From the NCBI RefSeq assembly GCF_000012925.1, contig NC_007517.1:1620001-1652000 (forward strand): a stretch of 32,000 nucleotides of DNA, read 5' to 3'. The translations under genes were made by a program, and so were the position numbers. Under the pieces are notes generated by a model that saw only the letters and a program-made list of their open reading frames with translations, searched no databases and was not told the DNA's origin. Positions 4,761 to 25,670 of the stretch are shown one piece after another. The DNA comes from Geobacter metallireducens GS-15. GTDB lineage: Bacteria > Desulfobacterota > Desulfuromonadia > Geobacterales > Geobacteraceae. Each line of letters opens with the position of its first letter. Within the stretch, counting starts at the first letter, position 1.

Positions 4761-5570
4761 ATGTATAGATATGCACGTAAGTATGCTTTTACTGTCGTTG
4801 CCGTGGGTCTGGTCGCAGGTTGCGCCGCTCCGGAGAGGGGCGGATTGATCAAGGCCGGCGACCCGGTGCGGGTTACTTATACCTGCTTCGACGGTACCGG
4901 TGCCCTGGCGGCAACCAATGTCCGGGAAGCGGCGGGAAACAACGGAGTCAAAAAGGGGCCGCTTTTTCTTCCTTCCCGTGATTATTCACCCCTGCAACTC
5001 ACGGCAGGAACCAGGCCCGAGGCGAAGGACAGGGGTGTTGACGACGAACTGGCAGCCGGCCTGGCCGGGGCGGTGGTGGGCAAGGGAGTCGGCGAGGTGG
5101 CAAGCGTTGAACTGGCCGGCGGCCCCCTGGAAGGACTGTCCGGCGGAGACCGTTACCTGAAGATGGCCACGGTCCGCAAAAGAGCCAAGGAGCTGCGGCT
5201 GGGGAGGGAGGAATATCTCACCAGGACCGGCCGCGAGCCGGAGAAAGGGCGCAGGTTCGTGCTCGATCCGGCCCTGCCGGGGATAGTCGAAGAGGTTACC
5301 GACAAAGAGGTGGTCATCCGTTTCCCCCTCCCCGACGGGGGCGTGGTGCAGACCCCCTTCGGACCGGGCACTGTGCGGGACGGGGGCGACCAGTGGGAGA
5401 TCGTCATCGATGCCGCCGTGGGGCGGATCGTGCGAAGCGGCCCATTGGCGGGAAGGATCAGCGACGTGAACGAGCGGTTCTTTACCATCGACTACGGCTA
5501 TCCCTTTGGCGGTGAGTCGCTGCGGTGCGACGTGAAGGCGGAGAGGTCGGAGCAGGTGGGGAAACGCTGA
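4761..5570 (+). CDS. Lipoprotein, SlyD-like FKBP-type peptidyl-prolyl isomerase (269 aa)
   Basis: Lipobox VGLVAGC. FKBP N-terminal strand GDPVRVTYTCFDGTGALAATN. A long insert-in-flap-like middle region. C-terminal FFTIDYGYPFGGESLRCDVKAE corresponds to the DFNHPLAG-x-L-x-F-x-V motif of SlyD/FKBP proteins. Confidence 0.7.
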   Translation: MYRYARKYAFTVVAVGLVAGCAAPERGGLIKAGDPVRVTYTCFDGTGALAATNVREAAGNNGVKKGPLFLPSRDYSPLQLTAGTRPEAKDRGVDDELAAGLAGAVVGKGVGEVASVELAGGPLEGLSGGDRYLKMATVRKRAKELRLGREEYLTRTGREPEKGRRFVLDPALPGIVEEVTDKEVVIRFPLPDGGVVQTPFGPGTVRDGGDQWEIVIDAAVGRIVRSGPLAGRISDVNERFFTIDYGYPFGGESLRCDVKAERSEQVGKR

Positions 5571-5590
5571 GAGACAAGGGAGCGGCCACG

Positions 5591-6811
5591 ATGAACAGAA
5601 CAGCCACGTCAAAAATAGTTGCCATGATGCTTGTTGTCGCGGTGGCCATCCCGGCCCTGGCGGCTGAACCACGGAATGGGGAGTCGGCCGGGGCCGATGC
5701 GGTCCTGACAAAAGCCATCGAGGATGCGCTCGGCAATGGCACGGGCTCCGTCACTGTTGACCTGCCGCAGGCTGAAGGGAAGGCAAAAGCCGGCGATCTC
5801 GTGACGCTCCGCTATACCATGACCACGGCCGACGGTGCCCTGGTGGCAACCACCGAGGAGTCGGTGGCCGCTGACAAGGGGCGCCCGCGCTCCGTGGCAT
5901 TCACGGCCCGAAGCCGCTACCGCCCCGAAGAGATCGTTGCCGGCGGCGAAGGGAATCTTCCGGGGGTGGCAGAGGCGGTCATCGGCATGGCACCGGGGGA
6001 AAAGAAGCATCTGTCTCTCTCCGCCGACAAGGCGTTCGGTGCCCGTGACCCCCAGCGGGTCGTCACCATGGCGACGGTGAAGAGTCTCCCCCGGACAGTC
6101 GCCATTCCGGCGGCTGACTACGTGAAGAATTTCGGTGCCTTGCCGGTGGTGGGAAAGGAACTTCCGGTGGTTCCCTATTTTCCGGCCAGGGTCATCGAGG
6201 TGACCGAGCAGCAGGCAAAGCTGCAACTCCTCGCCAGGGACGGCGAGCGGTTCACCGAAAGCTTCGGCGCCGTGGAGACGAAGGTGGATGGGGAGTCGGT
6301 GAAGATCCGTCTGGTCCCCACCATCGGCGCTCCCTTTGAGTTCCGTGGGGCACGGGGGACCATCACCGCAGCCGGCGAGGAAAACTTCACGGTGGATTTC
6401 AACCATCCCCTGGCCGACCGGAGTGTGGTGCTCGATCTTGAAGTGGTTTCGCTGACCAAAGGGGAGAAGCTCGCGGCCATATCCGTTCCGTGGCTCGAAA
6501 ATCACGATCAGGGGCTTGAGAAGGCGAAACAAGAAGAGAAGCCCGCAGTGCTGGTCCTCTACGCCGACTGGTGCCAGTGGTGCAAGAAGCTCTTTGGCGA
6601 AACCGCGGAGGATCCGCGGATAAAGGCGGTTTCCGACCGTTTTGTCTGGATACGGGTGAACTCGGACAAGGAGAAGGCATACAAGGAACAATACGGCCAG
6701 GACGGCTATCCGCTGATCGTACTCCTCGACCGGCAGGGAAAGGTGGCGAAGAAGCTGGACGGCTTCCGCGATGCCGCCGGCCTGCGGGAAGAGCTGAATG
6801 CGCTGCTGTAG
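5591..6811 (+). CDS. Secreted SlyD-like FKBP PPIase fused to a C-terminal thioredoxin-fold domain with CxxC (406 aa)
   Basis: Track ORF 5525..6811, trimmed to the ATG at 5591 (MNRTATSKIVAMMLVVAVAIPALA is a signal peptide, with AAGGGAG upstream). FKBP motifs: GDLVTLRYTMTTADGALVATT, GMAPGEKKHLSL, FTVDFNHPLADRSVVLDLEVVSL. The C-terminal segment KPAVLVLYADWCQWCKKL...GYPLIVLLDRQGKV is thioredoxin-like; the WCQWC codons are at 6569-6583. Confidence 0.8.
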   Translation: MNRTATSKIVAMMLVVAVAIPALAAEPRNGESAGADAVLTKAIEDALGNGTGSVTVDLPQAEGKAKAGDLVTLRYTMTTADGALVATTEESVAADKGRPRSVAFTARSRYRPEEIVAGGEGNLPGVAEAVIGMAPGEKKHLSLSADKAFGARDPQRVVTMATVKSLPRTVAIPAADYVKNFGALPVVGKELPVVPYFPARVIEVTEQQAKLQLLARDGERFTESFGAVETKVDGESVKIRLVPTIGAPFEFRGARGTITAAGEENFTVDFNHPLADRSVVLDLEVVSLTKGEKLAAISVPWLENHDQGLEKAKQEEKPAVLVLYADWCQWCKKLFGETAEDPRIKAVSDRFVWIRVNSDKEKAYKEQYGQDGYPLIVLLDRQGKVAKKLDGFRDAAGLREELNALL

Positions 6812-6859: not shown

Positions 6860-8527
6860 ATGACCACTATATTTCCGCCGATACCCGACCGGTTGCGGCC
6901 CCTGCTTCGTATTGCCTTCATGTGTGGGATCCTCGCCACTCTGCCGATTCTCTGCGATGTGTATGCCGCCGACGAGCCCCCTGCCGCCCGGGACGAAGCA
7001 CGCCCGGAAGAGGCCGCGGAGCCGGCGGCAACCTCCGCTCCCGCCCCCGCGGAACAGCCGGTAACTTTTGCGATTACCACCATACTGGTGGAGAGGAATA
7101 CCCTTTTCGCTTCGGACAGATTGCAGGAGGTGATGGCCCCCTTCGTGGGTGACGGCAAGACCGCCGATGACGTGGAAAAGGCCCGGGAAGCGCTGGAGAA
7201 ATTCCACCACGATCAGGGCTATCCGACGGTGATCGTGAACATCCCCGAGCAGTCGGTGGAGGAAGGGATTATCCGGCTACAGGTGGTCGAGCAGCGGATC
7301 AATACGGTTACTGTCACGGGTAACCGTTATTTTTCACGGGAAATGATCCTAGGAAAATTCCCCTCGCTCCAACCCGGCGGGATCCCCCATGTTCCGACCC
7401 TCCAGGCCGAGTTCACCAAGGCGGGACGGAATCCGGACCTCAAGATCACGCCGGCCATGGCGCCTTCCAGGGAAGTGGGGTATGTGGACGTGGAGCTGAA
7501 GATAGAGGAGAAGCTTCCCCTGCACGGCAGCCTGGAGCTGAACAACCGGTCGAGCCACGACACCTCCGCCCTGCGGCTCAATGGAGCCATCCGCTACGAC
7601 AACCTCTGGCAGCGGGAGCACTCCGTCGGGCTCCAGTACCAGACCGCACCCGAGAAAACACGGGAGGTCCAGATCCTCTCCGGCTCCTACGTCCTTCCCG
7701 ATCCGTGGCATGACGACCGGCGGATCGTCTTCTACGGCGTCTGGTCCGATACCAATACCTTTGCGTCCCTTGGGGATATGCAGGTTCTCGGTAAGGGAAT
7801 CATCGTGGGTGGGCGGTACCTGATTCCGCTTGCAGGCAAGGGCCTTTACAACCACAGCGCCACCCTGGGCATCGACTACAAGAGGTTTGACGAGAGTGCC
7901 GGGTTCAAAACTCGCGTAAGTTACCTGCCGCTGTCAACGGCCTACGATGCGTCGCTTCAGGATTCCACCGGGTACACCCTCTTCAACGCCGGTCTCAATT
8001 TTGCTTTCCGGGGCGCGGTGACGGACCAGTCGGAAATGGCCGTCAAGCGCTCCGAAGCCAAGGGTAACTATCTGGCCGCCATCCTTGGGCTGGAACGGCA
8101 GCAGAAGCTTCCCCTCGGCATGGGGCTCCGCGCGCGGATTGACGGACAGCTCTCCAGCGAACCGCTTATCCCCAACGAGCAGTTCGTGGCCGGCGGCATG
8201 GACAGCGTGCGGGGGTACAAGGAGAGCGAGGCCCTGGGCGATAACGGCTTCCATGGCACCGTTGAGCTTCGGGTGCCTGACATTACTCTGGGAAGCGCCA
8301 TGAGCATGACCCCCTACGTTTTTTACGACATGGCAGCCGTCGAGCTGAAAAAGCCCCTTCCCGGCGAGAACCGCAGCCAGACCCTCCAGGGCACCGGGGC
8401 CGGCGTGCGGGGGATGCTGTTCAAGTTCCTCGAATACCAGGTCGATTTCGCAGTTGCCCTCTCCGATTCGGACCGGATCAAGGAAGGGGACCAGCGGGTG
8501 CATTTCAGGGTCAGCTGCGCGTTCTAG
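6860..8527 (+). CDS. TpsB outer-membrane transporter of a two-partner secretion system (ShlB/FhaC/HecB family, Omp85 superfamily), 555 aa
   Basis: The POTRA-like N-terminal region reads FAITTILVERNTLFASDRLQEVMAPFVG...IIRLQVVEQRINTVTVTGNRYFS. The conserved loop-6 motif is present (GMDSVRGYKESE). The C-terminus ends in F (RVSCAF). The gene lies immediately upstream of a TPS-domain protein. An alternative start at M21 (nt 6920) is possible. Confidence 0.9.
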   Translation: MTTIFPPIPDRLRPLLRIAFMCGILATLPILCDVYAADEPPAARDEARPEEAAEPAATSAPAPAEQPVTFAITTILVERNTLFASDRLQEVMAPFVGDGKTADDVEKAREALEKFHHDQGYPTVIVNIPEQSVEEGIIRLQVVEQRINTVTVTGNRYFSREMILGKFPSLQPGGIPHVPTLQAEFTKAGRNPDLKITPAMAPSREVGYVDVELKIEEKLPLHGSLELNNRSSHDTSALRLNGAIRYDNLWQREHSVGLQYQTAPEKTREVQILSGSYVLPDPWHDDRRIVFYGVWSDTNTFASLGDMQVLGKGIIVGGRYLIPLAGKGLYNHSATLGIDYKRFDESAGFKTRVSYLPLSTAYDASLQDSTGYTLFNAGLNFAFRGAVTDQSEMAVKRSEAKGNYLAAILGLERQQKLPLGMGLRARIDGQLSSEPLIPNEQFVAGGMDSVRGYKESEALGDNGFHGTVELRVPDITLGSAMSMTPYVFYDMAAVELKKPLPGENRSQTLQGTGAGVRGMLFKFLEYQVDFAVALSDSDRIKEGDQRVHFRVSCAF

Positions 8528-8542: not shown

Positions 8543-11500
8543 ATGAGCAGGAAACATTCAATCGAAACCAGATCCATCGCCCTCTTCATGGCGACGACCA
8601 CCGCGCTGTCGCCGGTGCTGGCCAGCGCCCAGGGAGTGCCCCGCGCAGCATCGCAGACAACCGGTGTCCCCCGGGCCGCAGCCGTCCAGAGTTCGGGTAT
8701 CCCCCGGGTCCTGTCCAATCTCATTCCCCCCACGGCCACGACTCTGCCGCAACTCAAGCCTGGCGGGGTTCTGGCCAATGCCGCGGTCGACACAACCGGC
8801 AATCTCCTTACCGTGAACCAGAGCGCCGACAAGGCGGTCATCGACTGGAACTCCTTCAACGTCGGCCGGGACGCCACGGTCCGGTTCAACCAGAACAAGG
8901 AGTGGTCGGCCCTTAACCGGATCTGGGATGCCAACCCGAGCCAGATCTTCGGAACCGTCAAGGCCGACGGGAAGATCTACCTCATCAACCGCAACGGGAT
9001 TCTCTTTGGCAAGGATGCGCGGGTGAACGTCAACTCCATCGTTGCATCGTCGCTCCACATCACAAGGGAGAACTTCGATAAAAGCCTCCTGAAATTCAGC
9101 AATCAGCAGGGGACTCCGGATGCCCCTGATGTGGCCATGCAGACCTACACGGCCGGTGCCGTGGCCAACGACGGTCAGATAACCACTGAAAAGCAGGGTG
9201 CCGCGATCCTCATGGGCTCCCAGGCTGAGAACCGCGGGGAGGTCGTTTCGCCTGAGGGTCAAATCGGCCTCGCGGCCGGCGATGAGGTGGAGCTTGCCCC
9301 CGACGAGAGTGGCAAGCGGCGGTATCTCGTGAAGGTTACTGCCAATCCGGGTGTTGCCGTGAACCGGGCCGAGGGGACCATGACGGCCGACTCCGGCGTC
9401 ATCGGCATGTATGGCCGTCAGGTCGTTCAGGACGGCACTGCACGGGCCGTTTCCGCCATCAAGAAGAATGGCGTCATCGAACTTCTGGCCACCGACTCAA
9501 TCTCGTTGGGAAAGGGGAGCAGAACGGAAAGCCCCGTTTCCGCTTCCTCTGAAACGGCCCATGAATCCTTCGAGTTCAAGGGGGGCGACATCCAGCTCAA
9601 GGGTCTCATGCCGGTGGTGGATACGGCGCCGGACGGCCCGCGCGTGCCGGTGAAGCGGATCGACATTGAGGGAACGGTTTCGGCCCCGTCGGGGAGCGTG
9701 GTTCTCGAAGCCGATGAGCGGGTTTATCTGTCAAATGGCGCCAGGGTTGACGTGAGCGGGACCGAGGTCAATCTCGCGGCCGACGCGAACCGGATCGAAT
9801 TCACCTACACCTCCGAGATCCTGAAGGACGAGTTCACCCAGAAGAGTGGTTTCCTCAAGGGGAAGACCGTCTCCATCGACGCCCATCAGGGGGCGAGCAT
9901 CGGTGATGTTTCCGGCGAACTGGGAAAGCGGGAGAAGACGGCCCTTGAACGAGGCGTGACCGGTGGCGATATCGCGATATCGGCCCGTTCGGGTGATGTC
10001 ATTGTCCGGAATGGGGCGGAGTTGAACTTTTCCGGCGGCAAGACCAACTACGCTGAAGGGAGCTACACCACCACCCGGCTTACCTCCCAGGGGAAGGAAT
10101 ACGACATTGCCACGGCTCCCCGGGAACTGGTTTACGATGGCCAGATCACCAAGGAGTCCTTCCATGCTGCCCACTCCGAAGGTGCCGATGCCGGCAGTCT
10201 CGTCATGGTGGCGCCCCGGATGGCGATGGACGGCTCCATGAAGGGTTCGGTCACCCGGGGGGTATTCCAGACGCTGCAGGCCGAGCCGGTGAACGGAACC
10301 GGCAAGCAGTCGGCCAAGGGGCGAAAGCTCCCCCTTGCCGGTACTGCAGAGTTCGGACAGAAGTCCACCAACCAACCCCCCGACGCCGAAGACGCCGTGC
10401 TGGGCGATACGGTTATCGCGGCGAATGTCGCACTGCTTCCGGCGGATTTCACCGACGACAGCGACCTCGCTGCCCAGCGCAGCGCCACCTACCTGCCGGC
10501 AGCTACCATCAATGACTCGGGAATCGGGACGCTGCGAGTCAGCTCCAACACCACCATCAAGACCGACCAGGGAGCAGTTGTCCAGCTCCAGCCCGGCGGG
10601 GAGCTGTCGTTGACGGCCCGTAGCATCGTTCACCAGGGTAACATCGACGTTGCCGGCGGCACGGTGAACCTGGTGACCCAGAACAACGTCACCAATTACG
10701 AAACCCTGGGGGGGGAGGCAAATCCAAAGGCAGCAGCGGTTGCCGATGAAGGGATCACCATTGCCTCGGGAAGCGTGATCAGCACCGCCGGTGATGTGCT
10801 CGACAACGGACCGGCGGTAAGGGTGAAGACTCAGGGAATGGAGGCCGTCAGGACCAACGGGGGGACGGTGAAGATATTCGACCGGACCGCCAAGGGGCAT
10901 GGTGTGGATGTGGCCACCGGTTCAAGCGTTGATGTGAGCGGCGGTCACGTGATCGACACGAAAGGAAAGGTAACCGGGGGCGATGCCGGTTCGGTGTCCA
11001 TCCAGGGGGAGCGGGTCAACCTCGATGGCGATATTGCCGGTTACTCCCTCGTGGGGAAAAAGGGTGGCGGCATCAGCGTCCACGCCGGCGAGGTGGTGGT
11101 TGCCGCTAATCCTTCCGCCATAAGCAACGACGGCACAAAGACCGTCATCGCAGACGACCGGTTTGCCGGCTCCGGCTTCAGTTCCATCGAATACAAGGCC
11201 GAACGGAACCTGACCGTGGCGGAAGGGGCGAACCTTGCCCCCTCGGCTGTGAAGGAATTCACCTCTACCCGTGGTGGCAGCAGAGTGGCCCGCAGCTCGG
11301 TAAGCGACGATCTTGTGGGTCCGTCGAAAGTGAAACTTGCGGCCGGCGCCAACCTGGACCGCAACGATCCGACGGCGGTCCCCAGCGTGGATGACGCCAA
11401 GGTCGTCATCGCGCAAAATGCCACGATCAAGACCCCGTATTCCGGCGAGATTTCCGTGTCGGGACCGGAAGTGGATGTGGCCGGAACCCTCTCGGCAGCG

Positions 11501-14500: not shown

Positions 14501-17500
14501 GGAGACACTGACGGCATCAGGCTGGAGAATGGTGCGAAGATTCTGGCACGGGGAACCGCTGACGTTGCCGGCGGCATGGTGGCCCTGAAGGCCGATGCGA
14601 AAGATGTGCGGATTGAGAGTGGCGCGCTGGTCGACGTTTCCGCCGGTGCCCAAGGGGATGCGGGGAGCGTATCCCTGACGGCGGAGAAGGGGCAGGTCGT
14701 GCTTGACGGGATCGTCAAGGGCGCGGCCCGGGGCACCGGTCGGGGCGGTTCGCTCGCCATGGACGGTTCGGTTGCCGATTTCGGCACCGTTGTCGACACG
14801 GCAACGACAGGGGGCTTCACCGAAGCGGTCGGTGCCAGAATCCGCACCGGCGACGTGACGGTGGCCTCCGGCAAGACTCTCACAGCCCGTTCCGTGCAGG
14901 TTTCCGCCGACAGCGGCGACGTAACGGTGAACGGCACCGTGGACGCCTCCCATGCCACGGGTGGCGGGCGGGTGGAGCTTTTCGCCGGCAGGAACGTGAC
15001 AGTGGCTTCCGGAGGCTCGGTAACGGCGAAGGGGACCGGCACGGGCGCGTCGGGTGGTGACGTGACTCTCGGCAGCGCCGCCAGGAGCACCACGGAGATT
15101 GCCGCCGGCACCGTGCCCGGAAAGGTGATCGTCGCATCAGGCGCTACGGTGGACGTCTCCGGCAACGGCGGCCAGGGGGGGACGGTTCTTCTGCGAGGCC
15201 AGTACGACGCCGCAAAACGTGACGTGAACATCGATGTCGGCGGGCAGGTGAGGGGGGCGCGGGAGATCGTCGCCGCCGGTGTTGCCGTGAAGGAATATAC
15301 CGGCGACAAACAGGTGATGGCCACCGACACCACCTCGTGGAAGACCGAGGCCGACAGGGTGATGGCCAATGCCGCCGCCATCCGCACCCGCCTCGCCGGC
15401 GCCATGGACAACGACGCCAAATCTGTCTTTCAGTACCGCCCCGATGTGGAGGTCCGAAGCACCGGCACCATGACCATGAAGAACGACCTGGACCTGACCA
15501 CCTGGCGCTACAACGGTCAGCCTGGCTACCTGACCCTGAAAGCGGAGAAGGATCTGGTTCTCGAAAAGAAGATCGTCGATCACCCGACGGCAAGCCTCAG
15601 ATCGCTTGTCAGTTCCACCGCCGCTCCCTCATGGGGCGTCAGGATGGCGGCGGGCTCTGACCGGGCCGGCGCCAATCCGCTGGCGGTGAAACGGGGGACC
15701 GGTGACCTGAAGTTCACCACCGACGGTTCGCTGGTCTACAGCGAGAGCGGAGCCGTGGATTTTGCTTCGGGCCGGGATACGGTCATCGCCAAGGGGGTGA
15801 AGAGCATCCCCAGCTACATGACCAACTTCAACCTGAAATACAACCTTGCCGCCTACACCGGGAATATCCGGGGGAATGTGGGACGGAACCTTTCCCTTGA
15901 GGGGGGAACGGCCATCCAGTCGGCGGCGGGGAACATCGGCATCGACATTGCCGAGAGCCTGGTCAACAAGGGAGCCATCAGGACCACGGGCGAATACCAG
16001 GGGGCGATCCTGGCTGACGGCACCCAGCCGGGTTTCTTCGATTACTGGAATTTCGGGGAAGGCGGGAATATCGCCATCCGCGCCGGCAAGACGGTCGAGG
16101 GGACCATCGCCAAGGACAAATCCTGGGACAACTCCTACCAGAACACTGACCTGGTCACCCGTGACCTCATCCCCCGTTTCTGGGCCGCCAACTATACCGG
16201 CAGTGCCACCACTCCCCAGACCGAGGGAATTGCCGCCATGGGTGGCGGCGACGTCACCGTGGCCGCTGGCGGCGGCATGACGGGACAGATGGGGACTTTC
16301 GGCAAGGGGAACCTGACGCTCACCAGCGGTGGCGACCTGAAGGGACGCTTCCTCGTGAAGGAGGGTACAGGAAGCCTCACTGCCGCCGGCAACTTCGGCG
16401 CACCGCCGGCCAATGCCGCCAAGCTGACGGACAATCCTCCCGAAACGGTGCTGGAACTCTTCGACGGCAGATTCAACGTTAAGGCCCAGGGTGACGTGGA
16501 ACTGGGGACCGTCAACAATCCCACCGTCAGCAACAAGGCGTTCAGCAAGTGGAACCTCTCCTATGGCGAAAACGCAGCGGTGAGTCTCGGGTCGAGTACC
16601 GGCAACGTCTCCTACTACGGCACCGGCGCTTACACCAACTACGGCAACGACTCGAACCGCCGCAACCTGGAGAAGATTCTCCCCGGCACGGTTGAGATGA
16701 ACGCCGCCGGCGACATCCGTCTCGACAGCGACATGTACCTGGCGCCGTCCCGTACCGGCAATCTCGTCATGAATGCCGGAGGCTCCGTTGACGGTTCCCC
16801 TGTTGACCCCCGCAGCGGCGTCAAGGCCAAGGCTCTCATGTCGGACCAGTCCCCCGACGATTACTACGGCCCGAGCACCGTTAACACCATCGACCGGGTC
16901 AAGACCCTGAGCAACGCCGCCCTCCATGCCGCAGTGCCGGTGCACGGGAACGACAGCACGAAAATTCAGGTTGCTGCCGATGGTGATATCCGGAACCTGG
17001 ATTTCATTCTGCCGAAATCGGCGATGCTGGCCGCCGGCCGCGACATCAGCAACGTCTCCTTCAAGGGGCAAAACCTCCGTGGCAGGGAGACCGACGGGAA
17101 CACCGGCGTGGTCACCTACAGCGGGGACGTTACCGAGATCAGCGCCGGACGCGACATCGTGATGCAGGAGCGCCGCTCGATGAACGGCGCCGACATCAAG
17201 ACCGGCACCGGATTCGATGTGGCCGGACCGGGGGCCTTTGTGGTCCGGGCGGGGCACGATATTGACCTGGGCAACAGCCGTGGCATTCAGGCCAACGGCA
17301 ATGCCGAGAATCCGGCACTGCCCAACAAGGGAGCAGACATCCTGGTAACAGCCGGGTTGACGGCGAACATTCCTCCCGGTGACGAAGACAACTATTTTAC
17401 GTTGCTGAAGTATGCGGCACTCCTTGCCCAGACAAAACTGACGGAGCGGAGCGGCATACTACAGGAGGCTGAAAAAGCATTCCTCGTCGATCCTTACATG

Positions 17501-18442: not shown

Positions 18443-20253
18443 TGAGCACACCTGAACGGAGGAGCATGATGAACAGCAGGATGTTTGGGCGTTTTGCGCG
18501 GGTGACGCTGGCAGCGGCGGCGCTGGTGATGACGGTGGCCGCGGTGCGGGCCGAGGCGTGGTGGGACGAGAAATGGCAGCAGCGGCGCAAGATCACCATC
18601 AATACGACGGCCCAGGGAGCGGAAGTGAAGGAGGCGGTTGCCGATGCGGCGGTGCTGGTCCGGCTCCACACGGGGAACTTCAGCTTCACCACCGCGAAGC
18701 CCGACGGTTCCGACGTCCGCTTCGTGAGCGGCGACGACAAGACACCCCTCAAGTTCCACTTCGAGATGTACGACGCGAAGAAGGAGATCGCCCTTGCCTG
18801 GGTGAAGGTGCCCCAGGTGGCGCCCAACTCGGGCCAGAACACGATCTGGGTGTACTACGGCAACAGTGGGGTCCAGGCGGCCCAGGACGTCGGCGGCACC
18901 TACGATACCCCCCAGGCACTGGTCTACCATTTCAGCGAGACCCAAGGTGCGCCCCAGGATTCCTCTTCGTATAAGAATCACGCGAAGGAGTTTGCCGGCG
19001 GGCTCGGCGCGCCGGCCCTGATCGGCGGCGGCGCAACGTTCAAGGGGGCGGAGCGGATCGTGGTTCCGGCGTCGCCGTCGCTTTCGTTCCCCAAGGGCTT
19101 CTCCTTCTCTGTCTGGGTGAAGCCGGCCCAGCTTCAGGGTGAGGCCCATCTCTTCTCGTGGGGTGACGGCGCCCAGGGCATCGTAGTGGGCCTTGATCAA
19201 AATGGTGCTGCCTTCGCCCGGGTGGGGCAGGCCGCTACGGGCCGGACCCAGCCTCTGGCTTCCCAGAAATGGCACCACCTTGCCGTGGCTGCGGAGCCGG
19301 GCAAGCGTCTGGCGATCTACCTCGACGGCCGCGAGGCCGCATCGTCGGCCATGCCGGCCTCTATGCCCGCGCCGGCGGGCGATGCATCCATCGGCGGCGG
19401 CGCCCAGGGGGGTAACTTCTTTGCCGGCGAGATGGATGAGGTGACCCTGGCCAGTGTGGCCCGCTCGGCCTCGTGGTTTGCCGCCGCTGCCGGAAGCCAG
19501 GGGCAGGAGGGGAAACTGGTGTCGTTGGCCCAGGAAGAGGCAGGGGGCAAGGGAGAGGCCGATCTCACCATCCATCTGATGAAGGTCATTGCCAAGAGCA
19601 TCACCCTGGACGGCTGGGCCATCATTGGCCTCTGTACCTTCATGCTTTTCCTGGCCGCCGGGGTCTTTGTCTATAAATTTCTGGCCCTGCAGAAAATTGT
19701 CAAGGGGAATGAAATGTTCCTCGAGAGCTTTGGCGAGCTTCACGACCCCCTGGCCCTGGAGGACACGGACGATGATCTGAAGCATTCGTCCATGTACCGG
19801 ATCTACCAGGCCGGGAAGATCGAAATCGAGCGGTGGCTCGCCCGCCAGAGCGCGGATAAGGAGATAAGCAGCCTTTCTCCCTCTGCCCTCAATATCTTCC
19901 GGTCGTCCCTCGACAAGGCCAATGTCAAGGAAAAGCAGAACCTCTCCTCCTGGCTCATCGTCATGACGCTCGGCATCTCCGGCGGGCCGTTCTGGGGGCT
20001 GCTCGGCACGGTCTGGGGGGTCATGAACACCTTCGCCAGCCTTGCCGAATCGGGCGAGGCGAACCTCACGGCCATCGCCCCGGGGGTCGCCTCGGCCCTG
20101 GCCTGCACCCTCTTCGGCCTCTTCGTGGCCATTCCCGCGCTCTTTGCCTACAGCTACCTGACCAACCGGATGAAGAACCTGAACGCCGACACCCACGTCT
20201 TTATCGACGAATACGCGGTGAAGGTTGAGGGCGTCTACGGAGAGAGAGCATGA
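18442..20253 (+). CDS. MotA/TolQ/ExbB-family proton channel with an N-terminal periplasmic DUF2341 + LamG (concanavalin-like) extension, 603 aa
   Basis: Track ORF 18367..20253, trimmed to the ATG at 18442. That ATG overlaps the TpsA stop (TGATG) and has GGAG 5-6 nt upstream. Signal peptide FARVTLAAAALVMTVAAVRAEA.
- DUF2341-like: WWDEKWQQRRKITINT...DGSDVRFVSGDDKTPLKFHFEMYD...ALAWVKVPQV...IWVYYGN.
- LamG-like: FSFSVWVKP...WHHLAVAAEPGKRLAIYLDG...FAGEMDEVTLA.
- ExbB core: GGPFWGLLGTVWGVMNTF...IAPGVASALACTLFGLFVAIPALFAYSYL. Confidence 0.85.
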   Translation: MSTPERRSMMNSRMFGRFARVTLAAAALVMTVAAVRAEAWWDEKWQQRRKITINTTAQGAEVKEAVADAAVLVRLHTGNFSFTTAKPDGSDVRFVSGDDKTPLKFHFEMYDAKKEIALAWVKVPQVAPNSGQNTIWVYYGNSGVQAAQDVGGTYDTPQALVYHFSETQGAPQDSSSYKNHAKEFAGGLGAPALIGGGATFKGAERIVVPASPSLSFPKGFSFSVWVKPAQLQGEAHLFSWGDGAQGIVVGLDQNGAAFARVGQAATGRTQPLASQKWHHLAVAAEPGKRLAIYLDGREAASSAMPASMPAPAGDASIGGGAQGGNFFAGEMDEVTLASVARSASWFAAAAGSQGQEGKLVSLAQEEAGGKGEADLTIHLMKVIAKSITLDGWAIIGLCTFMLFLAAGVFVYKFLALQKIVKGNEMFLESFGELHDPLALEDTDDDLKHSSMYRIYQAGKIEIERWLARQSADKEISSLSPSALNIFRSSLDKANVKEKQNLSSWLIVMTLGISGGPFWGLLGTVWGVMNTFASLAESGEANLTAIAPGVASALACTLFGLFVAIPALFAYSYLTNRMKNLNADTHVFIDEYAVKVEGVYGERA

Positions 20254-20657
20254 AAGCGCCTGCCGATGACATGGATGAAACGGTCGAGATAAACGTCGTA
20301 CCGCTCCTGGACCTGGCCTGGAACCTCCTGGTGGTGTTCATGATCGTGGTGACGGCGTCGGTCCAGGGGATCAACGTGAACCTCCCCAAGGCGAGCGCGG
20401 CCGCCGGGAAGATCAAGCCGAGCACCAAGGCGATCACCGTCGCCTCCGAGGGGACCATCTACCTGGACAGCGTGCCGGTGACTTTGGCGGAGCTTGAAAC
20501 CTATTTGCGCCAGGCAAAGGCCAGCGATCCGAACCTGCCGGTGGTGGTGCGCGGCGACGAGAAGGTTGAGTACAAGAGCATCGTGGAGGTGCTCGATCTC
20601 CTCTCCAAGCTGGAAATCAGCCAGTTGGGGCTCGTGACCCAGAAACTGGTGAAGTAG
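20250..20657 (+). CDS. exbD: ExbD/TolR-family biopolymer transport protein (135 aa)
   Basis: ATGA overlap with the preceding gene. INVVPLLDLAWNLLVVFMIV forms the single TM segment. INVNLPKAS...TIYLDSVPVTLAELETYL...PVVVRGDEKVEYKSIVEVLDLL follows the ExbD pattern. Confidence 0.9.
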   Translation: MKAPADDMDETVEINVVPLLDLAWNLLVVFMIVVTASVQGINVNLPKASAAAGKIKPSTKAITVASEGTIYLDSVPVTLAELETYLRQAKASDPNLPVVVRGDEKVEYKSIVEVLDLLSKLEISQLGLVTQKLVK

Positions 20658-20670: not shown

Positions 20671-21399
20671 ATGGCAACGCACAAGAAGAAAAAGCCCCAG
20701 CTGAAGAATTTTTTCGTCCCGGCAGCGGTGGTGCTTGTCATCATCGGCGGCATCGGCTTCGTGGCCAAGGTGATGCTGACCGATACCGGCGCTCCCCGGA
20801 AGAACAAGATCACCACGGTATCACTCGTGAAGCCGCCCGAACAGCCCAAGGAGAAGCCCCCCGAGCCGGAGCCCCCCAAGGAGATGCCAAAACCGCAGCA
20901 GATTGAGACCCCCACCATGGCCCAGCCCGATTCTCCCCAGCAGGCGAGCCAGGCACCGGACGACGGTCCTGCGGCCGGAAGCGATCTGGGGGTCGACGGC
21001 GAGGGGGGGGCTGGCTCCGACGGTTTCGGCCTCGTGGGGAAGAAAGGCGGCCGCGCCATAACCCTCGGCGGCGGGGGAGGCGGCGGAGGCGGCATGAACC
21101 GGTTGTCGCTCCTTGCCAGGTACGGCTGGTACACGAAAAAGGTGCAGGACGAGATCCGGGGCAAGGTGAAGTCGCTTCTGAACGACAACGGCGGTTTTCC
21201 CAAGGGGAAACTCCAGGCCGTGGTCAAGCTGACGCTCGATGCGAGGGGGGTGGTGGTGGATCATCGCATTGTCGGATCATCGGGCGATACCCGCATGGAT
21301 GAGGCGGTGCGCAAGTCCCTCGGCTTGATCCGGATCAGCGAGGCCCCCCCTGCGGATATGCCCCGGACCATGACCATCAAGATATCGTCCCTGGGATAG
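20671..21399 (+). CDS. tonB: TonB-like energy-transducer protein (242 aa)
   Basis: N-terminal TM anchor FFVPAAVVLVIIGGIGFV. Pro/Glu/Lys-rich spacer PPEQPKEKPPEPEPPKEMPKPQQ. A run of nine Gly. The C-terminal domain KLQAVVKLTLDARGVVVDHRIVGSSGDTRMDEAVRKSL...PPADMP has TonB-C topology. GGAGGAAG lies upstream of the ATG. Confidence 0.75.
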   Translation: MATHKKKKPQLKNFFVPAAVVLVIIGGIGFVAKVMLTDTGAPRKNKITTVSLVKPPEQPKEKPPEPEPPKEMPKPQQIETPTMAQPDSPQQASQAPDDGPAAGSDLGVDGEGGAGSDGFGLVGKKGGRAITLGGGGGGGGGMNRLSLLARYGWYTKKVQDEIRGKVKSLLNDNGGFPKGKLQAVVKLTLDARGVVVDHRIVGSSGDTRMDEAVRKSLGLIRISEAPPADMPRTMTIKISSLG

Positions 21400-21444: not shown

Positions 21445-23412
21445 ATGAAACGTACCATCACCCGCCTGACCAGCGCGGCAGCACTCGTCACCCTCATGGC
21501 CGCCGCGCCGGCCCTCGCGGTGGAGACGTCGCCCGTTGCCGCCAAAATGGCCGGGATCGGCGAGCTTATAAAGCTCCTCAGGGAGAAGGGGGTCATTTCG
21601 GAAGAGGAGGCCGGCACCCTTGAGCGGCGCATTGCCGGCGAGGAGAAAAAACAGCCCGTAACCCCGCCTGAACTAGCCGTAACGGCCGATGCCGGTGCGG
21701 CGGAACAGGTGAAGCTGACCTTCGGGGAAGCCTCCGACCTGATCGGCGCCATGAACGACCAGGGGATCATCAGCACCGAGGAAAGCCTGGCTCTCAAGGA
21801 ACGGCTCTATGAAATCCGGAAGGAGGCCAAGGGGAAGCTGGATTCCCCGGTGCCGGCAATGGAACGGAAAGAGACCGCTGATATCTTCGCGGGAACCGCC
21901 ATCGAGTACCGACGCTCCACCAAATCGGAGCAAGAGGTGGCGGAAATGGTCGCCGCAGCCCGCGGAATCGGCCTCGTGAGCAGGGAAGAGTCATCCAGCC
22001 TCATGGCCCGCTACCGGGCGAAGGCAGCCACCGACCAGCTTACCGGCGCCATGATCGACGAAGTCAACAGGGGAGTCGGCGAGAGCATTGACCGGAGGGT
22101 GACCGAGGAGATGACGAAAGTGGACAAGCTGGGCGACAAGTTCGCCAAGCTTCCCGAGTGGCTCAACCGCTTCAAGTTCTCGGGGGATATCCGGCTGCGG
22201 TATCAGGGGGATTATTTTGCCAAGGGGAATACAGGGGAAAACTCTTATCCAAGTCCACTGAAAGCAAATACTTTCTCGCCGCTCACACAGGGGAATACGA
22301 TAAATACAACACATGACCGTCAACGTCTTCGCATAAGGGCTCGGCTGGGGGTTAATGCAAAGGTCAATGATCAGGTTGATGCGGTCATAAAGCTGGCCAC
22401 CGGGAACGACAAGGACCCTGTTTCAACCAATGATACCCTTGGTAATAGCTTCAACAAGCACGGTTTTTTATTGGACTTGGCCTTCTTGCAATATAAGCCT
22501 GTATCCGGCCTTACCCTTTGGGGCGGACGAATGCCAAGCCCCTGGTTCTCCACCGATCTGGTCTGGGACCCCGACCTGAATTTTGAGGGGGTTGCTGCTA
22601 CGTATGCTATGCAGTTGAGCGATTCATTTGGTGGCTTCTTGACTGCGGGAGTGTTCCCTCTTCAGGAATTTGAGTATTCCCAGAGAGACTCATGGCTGTA
22701 CGGGGCGCAGGCGGGAGTGGAATTCAAACATGGAGACGACATATCCGCGAAAGTGGGAGTTGCCTATTACCACTATGAAAACATGAAAGGCAAACATAGC
22801 GAAAGTCTCAATCAAGCAATAAATGGTCCTTTTCATGCTGATCTTAGGCAGGCCCAGAAAGGTAATACGGTATTTGATCAAAATATGAATTTCCCGACTT
22901 ATTATGATGATAAAGGGAATCTTCAACTTACAAATTATGTTCCTGCTCTGGCCTCGAACTTTAAGGAACTCAACGTCACTGCCGCCGTCGATTTCGGCTT
23001 CTGGGACCCGATTCATTTCGTGTTCATGGGCGATTATGTGAAGAACCTCGGCTTTGACCTGGACGAGGCCCGGAAGCTGACCGGCGATAATCTGGTCAAG
23101 GACGATTCCACCGGATACCAGGTGGGACTTGCGGTGGGCCACCAGACTGTCACGAAACCGTGGGAGTGGAAGAGTTACCTCTTTTACAAGAAACTGGGCG
23201 CCGATGCGGTCTACGACGGGTTCACCGATTCTGACTTCCACTTGGGCGGCACCAACGCAAAAGGGTGGATTCTCGGCGGGGATGTGGGGATACTCAAGAA
23301 CTTCTGGCTCTCCACCAAGTGGCTGACCGCCAACCAGATAACCGATACTCGTGACAAGCCCGGCCCCTTTGATGTTGACGTCTTCCAGTTCAACCTCAAT
23401 GGCAAGTTCTAA
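21445..23412 (+). CDS. Outer-membrane beta-barrel (putative porin-like) protein with a helical N-terminal extension (655 aa)
   Basis: Track ORF 21427..23412, trimmed to the ATG at 21445 (GGAGG 7 nt upstream). Signal peptide MKRTITRLTSAAALVTLMAAAPALA. From FKFSGDIRLRYQGDYF onward the sequence shows alternating amphipathic strands, and the C-terminus is FQFNLNGKF (terminal Phe). No Cys. I did not recognise a plug domain. Confidence 0.7.
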   Translation: MKRTITRLTSAAALVTLMAAAPALAVETSPVAAKMAGIGELIKLLREKGVISEEEAGTLERRIAGEEKKQPVTPPELAVTADAGAAEQVKLTFGEASDLIGAMNDQGIISTEESLALKERLYEIRKEAKGKLDSPVPAMERKETADIFAGTAIEYRRSTKSEQEVAEMVAAARGIGLVSREESSSLMARYRAKAATDQLTGAMIDEVNRGVGESIDRRVTEEMTKVDKLGDKFAKLPEWLNRFKFSGDIRLRYQGDYFAKGNTGENSYPSPLKANTFSPLTQGNTINTTHDRQRLRIRARLGVNAKVNDQVDAVIKLATGNDKDPVSTNDTLGNSFNKHGFLLDLAFLQYKPVSGLTLWGGRMPSPWFSTDLVWDPDLNFEGVAATYAMQLSDSFGGFLTAGVFPLQEFEYSQRDSWLYGAQAGVEFKHGDDISAKVGVAYYHYENMKGKHSESLNQAINGPFHADLRQAQKGNTVFDQNMNFPTYYDDKGNLQLTNYVPALASNFKELNVTAAVDFGFWDPIHFVFMGDYVKNLGFDLDEARKLTGDNLVKDDSTGYQVGLAVGHQTVTKPWEWKSYLFYKKLGADAVYDGFTDSDFHLGGTNAKGWILGGDVGILKNFWLSTKWLTANQITDTRDKPGPFDVDVFQFNLNGKF

Positions 23413-23415: not shown

Positions 23416-24720
23416 TTGCAACGGGTGTCCACCGCACCAATGAAATGGCGCTCCATGCTGGACCGTGCCGCCGTCCGGGGTCTTCGCTCCGGGCGGCGGT
23501 GGCGGCCTCTCATTAACCGACGGATGGTCACGGGGTGGCTCGGCCGCCGCTACGAGGCCCTCTACGCCAGCCGCCGCCGCATCTTCGGCGCCAACTTCCT
23601 GAGCGGCCTCCTGATCGCCTTCTCGGTATTCTTCCTGGGGCAGACCGGGATATTTGGCGCTGTTCTCGATTTTTTCATCCGGCTCCTGCTGACCGCGAAG
23701 CTCATGCTGCTGGAGCGGCGTCTCATGCCGATGCCGTTTCTTCCCACCGCCGCCTCCTTCGTTACGGTCGTCGCCGCCGCGGCGCTCATCTGCACTCACG
23801 TCCGCTCCGTGGCAGTGGTGGTGGCGCTCAATGCCATCCTGTGCGTTGCCATTATCGGCATCAATCTCTTCGTGCCGATTCCGTTTCCCCTTCCCCTCGG
23901 CACGGTGCCGGTGGTGCTCCTCATCACCCTTGGCGCCCTTCTCGACTGGCTCCTGGAGCGCCGTCTGCTGCGGCGCCGCTCCACTCTTTCCGCGGAGCGC
24001 CAGGAGACCAGTTTCACGATCCTGCGTCACATAGCCCATAGCGTGAACCCCACCATCCAGATGGCGCTGGCGCCGCTGCGGGATCTGCACGACCACCTGG
24101 AGCGCCGCAGCCTGACGGGCGATATCATCGGCACCCGCCGCGACGGCAGCGCAGAGCGGGTGGAGGACGCCCTTGCGGCCACGGAGCTGGGGCTGCGGCA
24201 GATACGCGAGATACTGGACACCACGGAGGATCTTTTCGGCAACAGGATCGAGGATCGTGATTTTGAAGAGGTGGACCTGCGCGAGCTTTTCGCCCGGGAA
24301 ATCATCCCGCTCTTTCCCCACCCCCGCTTCTCTCTCCGGACCGAATTCAATTGCGTGAATACCGTACGGCTCCATCGTCCTTCCTTTGTGCAGGCGGTGA
24401 AAAACCTCATCCGTAACGCCGAGGTCCACGGCTTTCCCCCTGGCTTCCAGCGTGATGAGGGGCTCTGGGTGAGATTCTCCATTTCGCGGACGGTGAAGGA
24501 GATCGTCATCGACTACGAGAACAACGGCCTCCCATTTCCCCTAGGGTTGAGGACAAAAGACTTCCTCGCCTTCGGCACCAAAGGGAAGGGGAGCCCGGGC
24601 AAGGGGCTCGGCGGCGCGTGGGTTGCCAAATTCATTGAGATTCACAACGGCACGTTCAGCAAGTTGGGGAATGATCCGGTACGCTTCCGGATGACATTGC
24701 CGAGGAGGCGGGTGACATGA
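23416..24720 (+). CDS. Membrane-bound sensor histidine kinase (GHKL ATPase) with a multi-TM N-terminus (up to 434 aa)
   Basis: About five hydrophobic helices, then a putative phospho-His region SFTILRHIAHSVNPTIQMAL. The N-box is VKNLIRNAEVHGF. The G-boxes are VIDYENNGLPF and GTKGKGSPGKGLGGAWVAKFIEIHNG. The start is uncertain: TTG at 23416 (3 nt after the porin stop) or ATG at 23440, and neither has a clear SD. Confidence 0.8.
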   Translation: MQRVSTAPMKWRSMLDRAAVRGLRSGRRWRPLINRRMVTGWLGRRYEALYASRRRIFGANFLSGLLIAFSVFFLGQTGIFGAVLDFFIRLLLTAKLMLLERRLMPMPFLPTAASFVTVVAAAALICTHVRSVAVVVALNAILCVAIIGINLFVPIPFPLPLGTVPVVLLITLGALLDWLLERRLLRRRSTLSAERQETSFTILRHIAHSVNPTIQMALAPLRDLHDHLERRSLTGDIIGTRRDGSAERVEDALAATELGLRQIREILDTTEDLFGNRIEDRDFEEVDLRELFAREIIPLFPHPRFSLRTEFNCVNTVRLHRPSFVQAVKNLIRNAEVHGFPPGFQRDEGLWVRFSISRTVKEIVIDYENNGLPFPLGLRTKDFLAFGTKGKGSPGKGLGGAWVAKFIEIHNGTFSKLGNDPVRFRMTLPRRRVT

Positions 24721-25670
24721 GCGAGGGATGCGGCATTGCGCTCACCATGCTGATTATCGATGATGACGAGCGGTACGTGGACGCCCTTTTCCGCGACGCC
24801 CGAAGGGCCGGGATACGGCTTCTGCACGCGGGAAGCCTGGAGGAAGGGAAGCTGGTGGTCGAAGGTGTCGATGGGGCCGGCATCTGCGGGGTAATCCTCG
24901 ACGTGGAGTGCTATAAGCGCCGCGACGACGCAACCCCCGATTCCAGCTTCATCATCGCCGCCACCAAGTATTTCACCGAGAAGGCCCCCCATCTCCCGGT
25001 GGTGGCCCTGACCGGCGTTCAGGCGCTCTTCGACCGTTACGTGAAGGATTTTGCCGGCATCTGGCAGGTCTACAAAAAGGGACGCGACGAGTCAGCCATG
25101 TTCGCGCACCTTCGGCAACGGGCGCTGGAGCTTGAGTGGGTGAAAGTTGCCGGGCGTTATCCGGATGTTTTCCGGGTGGTGGATACGTACCTCGGTGCCG
25201 ACACCCGCCAGGCGCTCATGGACTGCCTGTTGACCATGGACGACGGCACTCCTGCCCGCATCCGGGGGAATCTGGCCAACCTGCGGAGCATCCAGGAGAA
25301 GCTCTACATCGTTCTCCACCGCCACCGCCCCGACATGGTGCCGCGCCGGTTCATCTACTACGAGCATGGCGACCAACCCCTCAAGAGCGTGAACGTGGCC
25401 GCCATCCTGGAGCACCTGAAAGGGAACTTCGACATGCGGAGGCAGCAGATTCAGGGGGAGGTATTCCTCCACTACCGCTCTCCCCTCTACCGCTTCTCGG
25501 AGCTGGTCTACCGGGTCTCCTCCGACGGCATCCATGCCATCGACGAAGACAGCGCCGACAAGCCGACCCGCTACACCGTTCAGGCGGTGGCCAATGCCTT
25601 GCTTGAGCTTGTCCTCTGGTTCGGGAGGGTGGCGGGGGAGGGGAGCATTGAATGTACCGGGGTACGTTAA
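24717..25670 (+). CDS. Response-regulator receiver protein with an unrecognised C-terminal output domain (317 aa)
   Basis: ATGA overlap with the kinase gene. The receiver residues occur in order: LIIDDDE (acidic pair), GVILDVE (phospho-Asp candidate), VVALTG (Thr), VYKKG (Lys). Residues from about 135 to 317 match no DNA-binding or enzymatic output domain that I recognise. Confidence 0.75.
   Translation: MSEGCGIALTMLIIDDDERYVDALFRDARRAGIRLLHAGSLEEGKLVVEGVDGAGICGVILDVECYKRRDDATPDSSFIIAATKYFTEKAPHLPVVALTGVQALFDRYVKDFAGIWQVYKKGRDESAMFAHLRQRALELEWVKVAGRYPDVFRVVDTYLGADTRQALMDCLLTMDDGTPARIRGNLANLRSIQEKLYIVLHRHRPDMVPRRFIYYEHGDQPLKSVNVAAILEHLKGNFDMRRQQIQGEVFLHYRSPLYRFSELVYRVSSDGIHAIDEDSADKPTRYTVQAVANALLELVLWFGRVAGEGSIECTGVR

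Follow-up and report, generated by a model that had tools for sequence, protein, structure and literature searches.

Two-partner secretion genes, an ExbB/ExbD/TonB-type motor and a Porin_5 protein inherited as one unit in Geobacter metallireducens and across several phyla

Among pathways of protein export across the outer membrane, type V secretion is the textbook case of one that runs with no energy source. We analyzed a stretch of 32,000 nucleotides of Geobacter metallireducens GS-15 (NC_007517.1, positions 1,620,001 to 1,652,000; the window), in which a two-partner secretion (TPS) pair, consisting of a giant exoprotein (TpsA) and its transporter (TpsB), shares a gene block with the components of an ExbB/ExbD/TonB-type motor and a Porin_5 outer-membrane protein. 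Comparative analyses in both search directions show that the six core proteins, TpsB, a DUF3739-type TpsA, an ExbB-like protein, ExbD, a TonB-like protein and Porin_5, form one inherited unit. In lineages ranging from Geobacter and Nitrospirota to Pseudomonas aeruginosa, the genes of one TPS subfamily are nearly always accompanied by those of a proton-driven motor of their own.

Organization of the locus

The block consists of ten consecutive open reading frames (ORFs) on the plus strand, g1 to g10, and is flanked by two intrinsic terminators.

3989-4031, both strands: left-flank intrinsic terminator, bidirectional, found by terminator scan and folding
4761-25670, plus strand: ten-ORF block, from the ORF list
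4761-5570, plus strand: g1, lipoprotein-like divergent FKBP/SlyD-type chaperone, a paralogue of g2
5591-6811, plus strand: g2, periplasmic FKBP-type prolyl isomerase with a thioredoxin-like domain; signal peptide read from the sequence
6860-8527, plus strand: g3, TpsB transporter of the Omp85 family (POTRA_2, 53.8 bits; ShlB, 76.2 bits)
8543-18442, plus strand: g4, TpsA giant exoprotein of 3299 aa with TPS and DUF3739 domains
17870-18220, plus strand: DUF3739 region of TpsA (residues 3110-3226, 115 bits)
18356-18394, plus strand: strand motif at the extreme C terminus of TpsA, FVTSWLDVKVIGF; a 15-aa charged tail of mixed acidic and basic residues follows
18442-20253, plus strand: g5, ExbB/TolQ-type proton-channel subunit (Pfam DUF2341, Laminin_G_3 and MotA_ExbB)
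20250-20657, plus strand: g6, ExbD/TolR subunit (ExbD, 90.7 bits)
20671-21399, plus strand: g7, TonB/TolA-like energy transducer (TonB_2, 46.7 bits; cut-off 22)
21445-23412, plus strand: g8, Porin_5 outer-membrane protein (Porin_5, E 5e-131)
23416-24720, plus strand: g9, polytopic membrane protein with a divergent histidine-kinase-like ATPase domain, lineage-specific accessory
24717-25670, plus strand: g10, 317-aa protein translationally coupled to g9, lineage-specific accessory
26110-26147, no strand assigned: right-flank intrinsic terminator, a hairpin followed by U6

From g1 to g10, successive genes are separated by 20, 48, 15, -1 (TGATG), -4 (ATGA), 13, 45, 3 and -4 nt; the distance between g8 and g9 is 3 nt, or 27 or 39 nt with ATG starts at 23440 or 23455. 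The ORF coordinates and measured distances bear out the ten plus-strand genes and the gaps listed in a preliminary description of this DNA, and the folding energies on both sides agree with the strong flanking terminators that it reported. The left hairpin (3985-4045) folds with -33 kcal/mol on the plus strand and -35.4 kcal/mol on the minus strand (z scores of -5.5 and -6.1), and the right one (26100-26155) with -33.7 kcal/mol (z score of -6.95). That description had also found no internal terminator, which is nearly right. Terminator-like matches within the block number 7, 15 and 6 in three scanned stretches, compared with ~5.4, 9.3 and 7.2 in shuffled sequence. What it had missed is one intragenic hairpin in tpsB (7304-7327), with a 9-bp stem followed by UAUUUUU (-15.7 kcal/mol, z score of -3.8), which could act as a partial terminator or attenuator ahead of tpsA or be a chance occurrence. 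The genes of the block lie close together and probably share a transcript, as has been reported of pdtB to PA0701 in P. aeruginosa. A by-eye search for a Pho box upstream of g1 yielded an unconvincing match, CTGTAACAAACAGCTGAT at ~4698-4715, and no tandem DNA repeats were found in tpsA.

The secretion pair

The 3299-residue TpsA protein is devoid of cysteine. Its TPS domain (residues 80-311) is recognized by PF05860 (92 bits, cut-off 33.5) and TIGR01901 (72 bits, cut-off 29.1), matches the solved structures of EtpA, HMW1 and HxuA, and carries the NPNG-type motif of type Vb TPS domains, which reads LINRNGILFG. As in other type Vb systems, the gene of a POTRA/ShlB-type transporter is adjacent and ends 15 nt before the tpsA start. 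At the N terminus of TpsB (6860-7070), a 30-aa Pro/Ala/Glu-rich segment lies between the predicted signal-peptide cleavage site and POTRA1. In alignments, several members of the subfamily (those of loci L050, L143 and L166 in the searches described below) have only ~5-15 residues at this place. With so short a segment preceding POTRA1, the N-terminal plug helix and linker of the FhaC type may be absent.

TpsA is conserved at both ends. The N-terminal TPS region and the C-terminal ~250 aa, DUF3739 included, are recognizable even in comparison with proteobacterial homologues, and over the last 240 aa the identity is 33% with a remnant on a Klebsiella plasmid and 27% with the Methylosinus protein. 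A search by sequence for a solved-structure relative of the DUF3739 region found none. Toward its end the protein runs from the DUF3739 repeats through a Ser/Ala/Gly-rich linker to an amphipathic strand motif and the charged tail. A pattern for the amphipathic core of this motif is present in 135 of 148 TpsA C termini, whose aligned consensus is D-F-x-x-K-W-L-D-V-K-V-I-[DSG]-F; the equivalents are SVITVQVLGF in P. aeruginosa PdtA and SIITVEVLGY in Methylosinus. We regard the motif as a candidate docking tag for the motor, and its resemblance to the short strands that the C-domains of TonB-family proteins bind by strand addition provides a lead.

The motor

The g5 protein is composed of a signal peptide, a periplasmic lectin-like module of ~330 aa (DUF2341 and LamG) and an ExbB/TolQ-type body. 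In its AlphaFold2 (AF2) model (predicted local distance difference test score, pLDDT, of 81), a signal helix precedes two beta-sandwich domains (residues 47-337), after which comes a helical body (374-599). In Foldseek searches with this model, the sandwich part matches lectins and carbohydrate-binding modules and the body matches TolQ and ExbB, with TM-scores normalized to the target of 0.74-0.85. At E <= 1e-30, the DUF2341-LamG unit (18553-19551) has matches in 1,090 cluster representatives. Many of these proteins are giants, 2,000-7,900 aa long, in which the unit is repeated in tandem up to 25 times (the longest has 7,867 aa). Since it is repeated in so many giant proteins, it represents a general, widely reused module.

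The g6 protein retains the transmembrane Asp of ExbD, in the sequence VVPLLDLAW, and the conserved TolQ/ExbB helices of g5 are invariant across 53 homologues. By these features the motor looks functional. The g7 protein has an N-terminal transmembrane helix, a Pro-rich and a Gly-rich spacer, and a TonB_2 C-terminal domain. With three families above their Pfam cut-offs and a TolQ/ExbB fold in g5, these genes have the composition of an ExbB/ExbD/TonB inner-membrane complex. The motor proteins score slightly nearer TolQ/TolR than ExbB/ExbD, yet remain under the equivalog cut-offs; neither TolB nor Pal, as would be expected of a Tol-Pal system, was found among the window proteins scanned.

The Porin_5 protein

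In the AF2 model of g8 (pLDDT 83), residues ~30-234 form three helical hairpins and a long helix, a predicted periplasmic stalk, and residues 243-654 form a predicted 16-strand barrel. The motif LLxxKGvIsxEEa recurs in the hairpins, which differ in number from one aligned homologue to another. The closest named relative is from Geobacter grbiciae (84% identity), and a search by sequence for a solved-structure relative of Porin_5 found none. By structure, Foldseek ranks OmpM1 of Veillonella first (E 4.5e-19), ahead of MOMP, Omp35 and OmpF, which are general trimeric porins, and DcaP; OprO is also among the structural matches. A SHOCT domain in the stalk hairpins was considered and rejected, the match being insignificant (E 0.19) and the likeness by eye only. 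We also rejected a classical TonB-dependent receptor as the identity of g8, because the model has 16 strands and no plug. No 22-strand receptor with a plug and a TonB box was found in the locus, the only barrels of which are TpsB and Porin_5.

These features raise the possibility of a surface-matrix or adhesion machine, in which fibre, stalked porin and Tol-like motor would build a trans-envelope anchor that tethers or tensions the fibre or an exopolysaccharide matrix, by analogy with the Agl-Glt focal-adhesion complex and with the tethering of the outer membrane by OmpM. The best structural match of g8, OmpM1, is indeed a porin that serves outer-membrane attachment and bears a periplasmic stalk. 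The motor obtains higher scores with TolQ/TolR than with ExbB/ExbD, and its ExbB-like subunit carries a lectin-like module of a type repeated up to 25 times in giant proteins. PEP-CTERM proteins, the exosortase EpsH and sugar-metabolism genes also occur in or beside the cluster in several lineages. However, the exosortase and exopolysaccharide neighbors are lineage-specific and none was seen at the Pseudomonas locus, and the porin stalk has no detectable peptidoglycan-binding domain. We therefore consider an anchoring machine of this kind distinctly unlikely.

Conservation of the gene set

With g5, 80 species-level loci were collected from genomes (158 relatives found), all ten window proteins were mapped onto them, and their ORFs were clustered. 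Flanks of 10 kb were used, and the counts of core genes refer to the 76 loci in which an ExbB-like ORF was called. TpsA adjoins the motor gene in 71 of the 76 loci, Porin_5 is present in 61 and TonB in 54. The absences are mostly explained by short flanks, and TpsB is seen whenever the flank passes the giant tpsA gene. The order TpsA, ExbB-like, ExbD, TonB-like, Porin_5 is held in almost all loci of sufficient reach. The loci include Geobacteraceae, Syntrophobacteraceae, Smithella, Desulfobacterales, Nitrospirota/Thermodesulfovibrionia and NC10, and the adjacency of TPS and motor genes is kept in Desulfuromonadota-type lineages, Syntrophobacterales, Nitrospirota, and Alpha-, Beta- and Gammaproteobacteria. 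The single NC10 locus has the motor and porin genes and no TpsA within the flank. Geobacter pickeringii likewise has homologues of the motor and porin genes.

Several loci are rearranged. TpsB lies directly upstream of the motor gene in L043, L050, L067, L070, L074 and L079, and TpsA is relocated downstream of the motor and accessory genes in L067, L076 and L079. As these variant-order loci still hold the TPS genes together with the motor, the gene set survives rearrangement. Two further genes are near-core among the 80 genome loci, coding for a SurA/PpiC-type isomerase (cluster c7, 26 loci) and for a small coiled-coil protein with an N-terminal hydrophobic segment (cluster c6, 35 loci), which is weakly related to PA0697 of P. 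aeruginosa (E 3.5e-8).

For the converse test, a profile of the TpsA C terminus was scanned over metagenome contigs, and 80 loci were picked by that C terminus alone. The motor gene follows TpsA in 56 of the 62 loci with at least 2.5 kb of downstream sequence. Where at least 6.5 kb is available (42 loci), an ExbB-like protein is found in 39, ExbD in 37, a TonB-like protein in 37 and Porin_5 in 35. The synteny thus shows no independent assortment in either search direction, which argues that the core components belong together. The preliminary description had taken the TPS pair, motor and barrel for one unit, and the conservation of their synteny across several phyla and rearrangements sustains that view.

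Some TpsA copies of the same type lack a downstream motor gene (L094, L097, L111, L149, L150 and L154). At least two of these orphans, L094 and L111, retain the C-terminal strand motif. Such copies fit the extra tpsA copies served in trans that were described in Rhodopseudomonas and Janthinobacterium by Llamas et al. (2009).

The alternative to a joint system would be mere adjacency of two independent ones, an ordinary TPS adhesin operon and a Ton/Tol paralogue that serves transporters elsewhere. Six of the 62 metagenome TpsA copies indeed have no downstream motor gene, and many genomes encode several TonB/ExbBD paralogues that act in trans. Nevertheless, the linkage of TPS and motor genes is kept across phyla and through changes of gene order, and this synteny nearly excludes a chance arrangement; the translational overlaps (TGATG, ATGA) and the co-transcription of the homologues in P. 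aeruginosa are also at odds with it. We thus consider mere adjacency very improbable.

One locus, L087, is on a Klebsiella pneumoniae plasmid (NZ_CP065459.1). There, a C-terminal remnant is all that is left of TpsA and TpsB is split over two frames (2469-5247), both unannotated, and intact motor, porin, YbjN, isomerase and LysR genes follow downstream. The TPS half of this plasmid locus thus appears to have decayed.

Relationship to the Pdt cluster of Pseudomonas aeruginosa

The g5 protein led to full-length relatives with the same neighbors on plasmids of Methylosinus and Klebsiella, and a homologue search with the Klebsiella protein reached a 615-aa protein of P. aeruginosa. The latter lies among genes for a 4180-aa TPS and DUF3739 protein, a DUF772 protein, a POTRA_2/ShlB protein, the DUF2341-LamG-MotA_ExbB protein, ExbD, TonB_2 and Porin_5 proteins, followed by a 220-aa protein, YbjN, Rotamase, a 141-aa protein, LysR and AraC, which corresponds to PA0690-PA0701a. 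Direct tblastn comparisons align g3 with PdtB (32% identity, E 2e-72), g5 with PA0693 or ExbB2 (38% identity over 609 aa, E 6e-117), g6 with PA0694 or ExbD2 (54% identity, E 8e-40) and g8 with PA0696 (34% identity, E 1e-67). The likeness of g7 to TonB4 is at the domain level only. Judging from the same core architecture and the direct alignments of four proteins, the block is the Geobacter-lineage member of the P. aeruginosa Pdt/ExbB2-type cluster.

In P. aeruginosa, these genes are part of the PUMA3/VreI regulon (PMC2729926). They comprise PA0690 (pdtA, coding for TpsA), PA0691 (phdA), PA0692 (pdtB, TpsB), PA0693 (exbB2), PA0694 (exbD2), PA0695 (a tonB homologue, tonB4), PA0696 (a putative outer-membrane porin), PA0697 (unknown), PA0698 (YbjN family), PA0699 (PpiC-type isomerase) and PA0701 (LysR-type regulator). 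The association of PUMA3, TPS, exbBD and PA0696 homologues in several proteobacteria was noted by Llamas et al. (PMC2729926), and a single promoter drives phdA, pdtB, exbB2D2, tonB4 and PA0696-PA0701 (PMC4971064). The cluster is controlled by PhoB and VreI, adjoins the Hxc secretion system and alkaline phosphatases, and is strongly induced in infection too. Under phosphate limitation, PdtA, PA0696 and PA0698 are among the most enriched proteins (PMC9769906). Export of PdtA depends on PdtB according to Faure et al. (2014), as cited in PMC7035377. The genes have been known since 2009, the motor was still called uncharacterized in 2020, and PA0696 and PA0698 were without assigned function in 2022. 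We found no mechanistic study in the literature on DUF3739, DUF2341, tonB4, exbB2 and PA0696.

The preliminary description had matched the block to no described system and had named hxuCBA as the sole known link between TPS and TonB. The architecture and alignments identify pdtA-phdA-pdtB-exbB2-exbD2-tonB4-PA0696 to PA0699 as its counterpart, and this cluster and the report of Llamas et al. (2009) contradict both statements.

Folding helpers and accessory genes

The paralogues g1 and g2 precede the TPS genes. The g1 protein, which has a lipobox (LVAGC) and no Pfam or NCBIfam match, aligns with the FKBP part of g2 (BLASTP, E 4e-19 over 236 aa). The g2 protein scores 30.2 bits for FKBP_C (cut-off 21.1) and 48.9 bits for Thioredoxin_7. 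Homologues of both (cluster c21) adjoin or neighbor TpsA or TpsB in L050, L067, L076 and L079. The prolyl isomerase is of the SurA/PpiC type in 26 genome loci and in Pseudomonas, and of the FKBP type in the window and 4 loci. Its occurrence in two non-homologous forms suggests a need for chaperoning in the periplasm, and this recurrence supports the dedicated chaperones of the preliminary description. The thioredoxin-like C-terminal domain of g2 (6500-6811) has a CQWC motif, though its presumed client, TpsA, is cysteine-free.

The same description had added a two-component pair to the system; the case for such a pair is weak, and g9 and g10 do not belong to the conserved system. The ATPase domain of g9 is below threshold (HATPase_c, 24.1 bits; cut-off 26.4) and has no accompanying HisKA match; comparison with the solved kinases PrrB, DivL and KdpD gives E values of 0.002-0.005. 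No family or structure match was obtained for g10, with no Response_reg at E values up to 5. A receiver domain in g10 could not be detected either with the single sequence or with a profile of 4 homologues, which reaches receiver structures at E ~1 only. Homologues of g9 and g10 occur together in the same 4 related loci only (L008, L018, L100 and L101), and the window ORFs examined included none that resembles vreAIR. Regulators are clearly exchangeable additions to the system, with g9/g10 in the window and VreAIR, PhoB and LysR in Pseudomonas.

Neighboring genes

Upstream of the block, three genes diverge from it.

1498-2802, minus strand: u1, secreted 434-aa protein with a divergent PstS-like periplasmic-binding fold, recurrent neighbor
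2864-3601, minus strand: u2, PEP-CTERM (exosortase-sorted) surface protein (TIGR02595, 17.1 bits; cut-off 16)
4134-4376, minus strand: u3, 80-aa protein, recurrent neighbor

The u1 protein scores 22.7 bits for PBP_like_2, below the cut-off, and 36.6 bits for TIGR02136, the PstS family, far below the cut-off; by tblastn, 17 other loci have a homologue next to the cluster. The u2 protein has weak XDP1/PepA matches, and its homologues adjoin u1-like genes in 12 other loci. The u3 protein has no family match, and tblastn detects it with 41-66% identity in 12 related loci. Homologues of u1 to u3 sometimes lie between the porin and TpsA genes (L067, L079). The three genes may be a lineage-specific extension of the system.

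The PstS-like neighbors and the phosphate response of the P. aeruginosa cluster would fit another function, nutrient scavenging in the manner of HxuCBA. TpsA would be a surface-bound or secreted binder or hydrolase of a scarce nutrient, with a phosphorus source most plausible, and the motor and the TonB-like protein would gate or drive uptake through Porin_5 rather than secretion. The P. aeruginosa cluster is under PhoB/VreI control, belongs to the strongest responses to phosphate limitation and is located near Hxc and alkaline phosphatases. Divergent PstS-like proteins flank the cluster not only in the window (u1) and in 17 other loci but also in Methylosinus. The Porin_5 fold is of the diffusion porin type, with OprO among the matches, and HxuCBA sets a precedent for a TPS protein that feeds a TonB-dependent importer. 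Several observations do not fit uptake, however. The predicted plug-less 16-strand barrel is unlike every known TonB-dependent transporter, and porins require no energy. The PstS-like matches are far under the family cut-offs, and these neighbors are present in a minority of loci. Scavenging also leaves unexplained the repeated recruitment of prolyl isomerases and the conserved C-terminal tag of TpsA. We consider it rather unlikely.

The exosortase EpsH is encoded in 5 loci. Its gene directly follows that of the SurA-like isomerase in L171 (Geotalea uraniireducens Rf4, CP000698.1, 12923-13921), lies between the TonB-like and porin genes in L043, and is within or beside the cluster in L097, L136 and L139. 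EpsH thus ties some versions of the cluster to PEP-CTERM protein sorting. As a general partner it was rejected, since its restriction to 5 loci makes it lineage-specific.

Just beyond the right terminator, the minus strand (26188-27978) codes for a secreted 596-aa protein with a weak match to CehA/McbA-type metallohydrolases. This protein recurs downstream of the cluster in L012, L017, L144 and L165, which may be ordinary synteny of close relatives.

Possible role of the motor

We tentatively favor, with a confidence a little short of even, the reading that the motor acts through the TonB-like g7 on the periplasmic end of the TpsA fibre, at its C-terminal tag or at the porin stalk, and couples energy to late export, retention or release, while the isomerases hold the unfolded chain. 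The Sec machinery would bring the cysteine-free TpsA into the periplasm, where the FKBP-type g1 and g2 would hold it unfolded, and TpsB would pass it outward with its N terminus leading. The g5/g6 motor in the inner membrane would use the proton-motive force to move g7, whose C-terminal domain would reach the outer membrane and engage, by strand addition, the C-terminal tag of TpsA or the helical stalk of g8. The cell would thereby hold, pull or release the periplasmic end of the fibre. Late export or surface retention of a passenger of 3000-4000 aa would then be energy-coupled and not purely driven by folding.

Several points weigh against this proposal. The target of the motor, its link to TpsA included, is one that we infer; the C-terminal motif of TpsA could serve another purpose, and the g8 porin model has neither a plug nor a classical TonB box. 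Phosphate regulation and the PstS-like neighbors fit nutrient uptake equally well. In P. aeruginosa, single tonB4, PA0696, tpsA and tpsB mutants behaved like the wild type in a zebrafish virulence assay, which does not measure secretion (PMC2729926). Finally, TPS secretion has been reconstituted without an energy source (PMC5422565).

In its broader form, the proposal would define a widespread TPS class coupled to the proton-motive force, in which the motor grips the strand tag of TpsA, directly or via the stalked porin, and powers or gates the last export step, retention, release or retraction. We view such a class as a serious possibility, though on balance a doubtful one. If it exists, type V secretion is not universally energy-independent. 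The rule of energy-free type V secretion may thus have an exception, or else TPS proteins may join an energized envelope machine.

In the literature that we searched, the breadth of the cluster (Desulfuromonadota-type lineages, Nitrospirota, NC10, Alpha-, Beta- and Gammaproteobacteria, and Klebsiella plasmids) is undescribed so far, as are the lectin-like module on ExbB2-type proteins, the stalked Porin_5 fold and the C-terminal tag of TpsA. The analysis provides comparative evidence of linkage and names testable parts, namely the TpsA tag, the porin stalk and the lectin-like module of ExbB. Both P. aeruginosa and Geotalea uraniireducens Rf4, which is cultured and has a complete genome, are tractable carriers of the cluster.

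Comparison with known systems

The block most resembles the Pdt cluster of P. aeruginosa. In both, TpsA ends with a DUF3739 region and the ExbB subunit is fused to DUF2341 and LamG; ExbD, TonB_2 and Porin_5 genes follow directly downstream of the ExbB-type gene, and TpsB and a prolyl isomerase are present. The order of the TPS genes differs, with TpsB and TpsA before the motor in the window and pdtA, phdA and pdtB in Pseudomonas. The window has no tblastn match to PA0697-like, YbjN or PpiC-type proteins and instead codes for two FKBP-type proteins and a thioredoxin domain. Its candidate regulators are the histidine-kinase-like g9 and g10, not VreAIR and LysR.

HxuCBA of Haemophilus influenzae is similar in that a TPS pair is genetically linked to a TonB-energized outer-membrane step. 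However, HxuC is a classical 22-strand TonB-dependent receptor with its motor encoded elsewhere, whereas the window has the motor in the locus and a predicted 16-strand porin.

Classical TPS systems, FhaB/FhaC, HMW1 and CdiA/CdiB, share with the block a TPS domain with an NPNG-type motif, a POTRA-bearing Omp85 transporter and a cysteine-free passenger. FhaB and CdiA retain a functional C-terminal part in the periplasm during export. In contrast to the block, these systems have no dedicated inner-membrane motor and their secretion is regarded as energy-independent. The window subfamily further differs from them by its DUF3739 C terminus with a strand tag and, in many members, by the short segment before POTRA1.

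With TonB-ExbB-ExbD and TolQRA, the motor shares an ExbB/TolQ-type body, the transmembrane Asp of ExbD/TolR and a Pro-rich transducer with a TonB_2 domain. Known homologues of ExbB/TolQ-type motors have a 5:2 stoichiometry. The ExbB of the window differs by an extra lectin-like module of ~330 aa, and the locus is without a TonB-dependent receptor, TolB, Pal or CpoB.

OmpM1 of Veillonella and DcaP of Acinetobacter resemble g8 in that a 16-strand barrel, predicted in g8, follows an extended helical periplasmic region. Unlike them, g8 has no SLH domain and its stalk consists of one to several LLxxKGvIsxEEa hairpins; no sequence similarity is detectable.

Finally, Myxococcus uses TonB/Tol-type motors for tasks other than import, in Oar-dependent PopC secretion and in the Agl-Glt gliding complex. 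Although these systems have no TPS pair and no sequence kinship to the block beyond the motor family, they share with it the concept of an ExbBD/TolQR-type motor acting on outer-membrane export or adhesin display.

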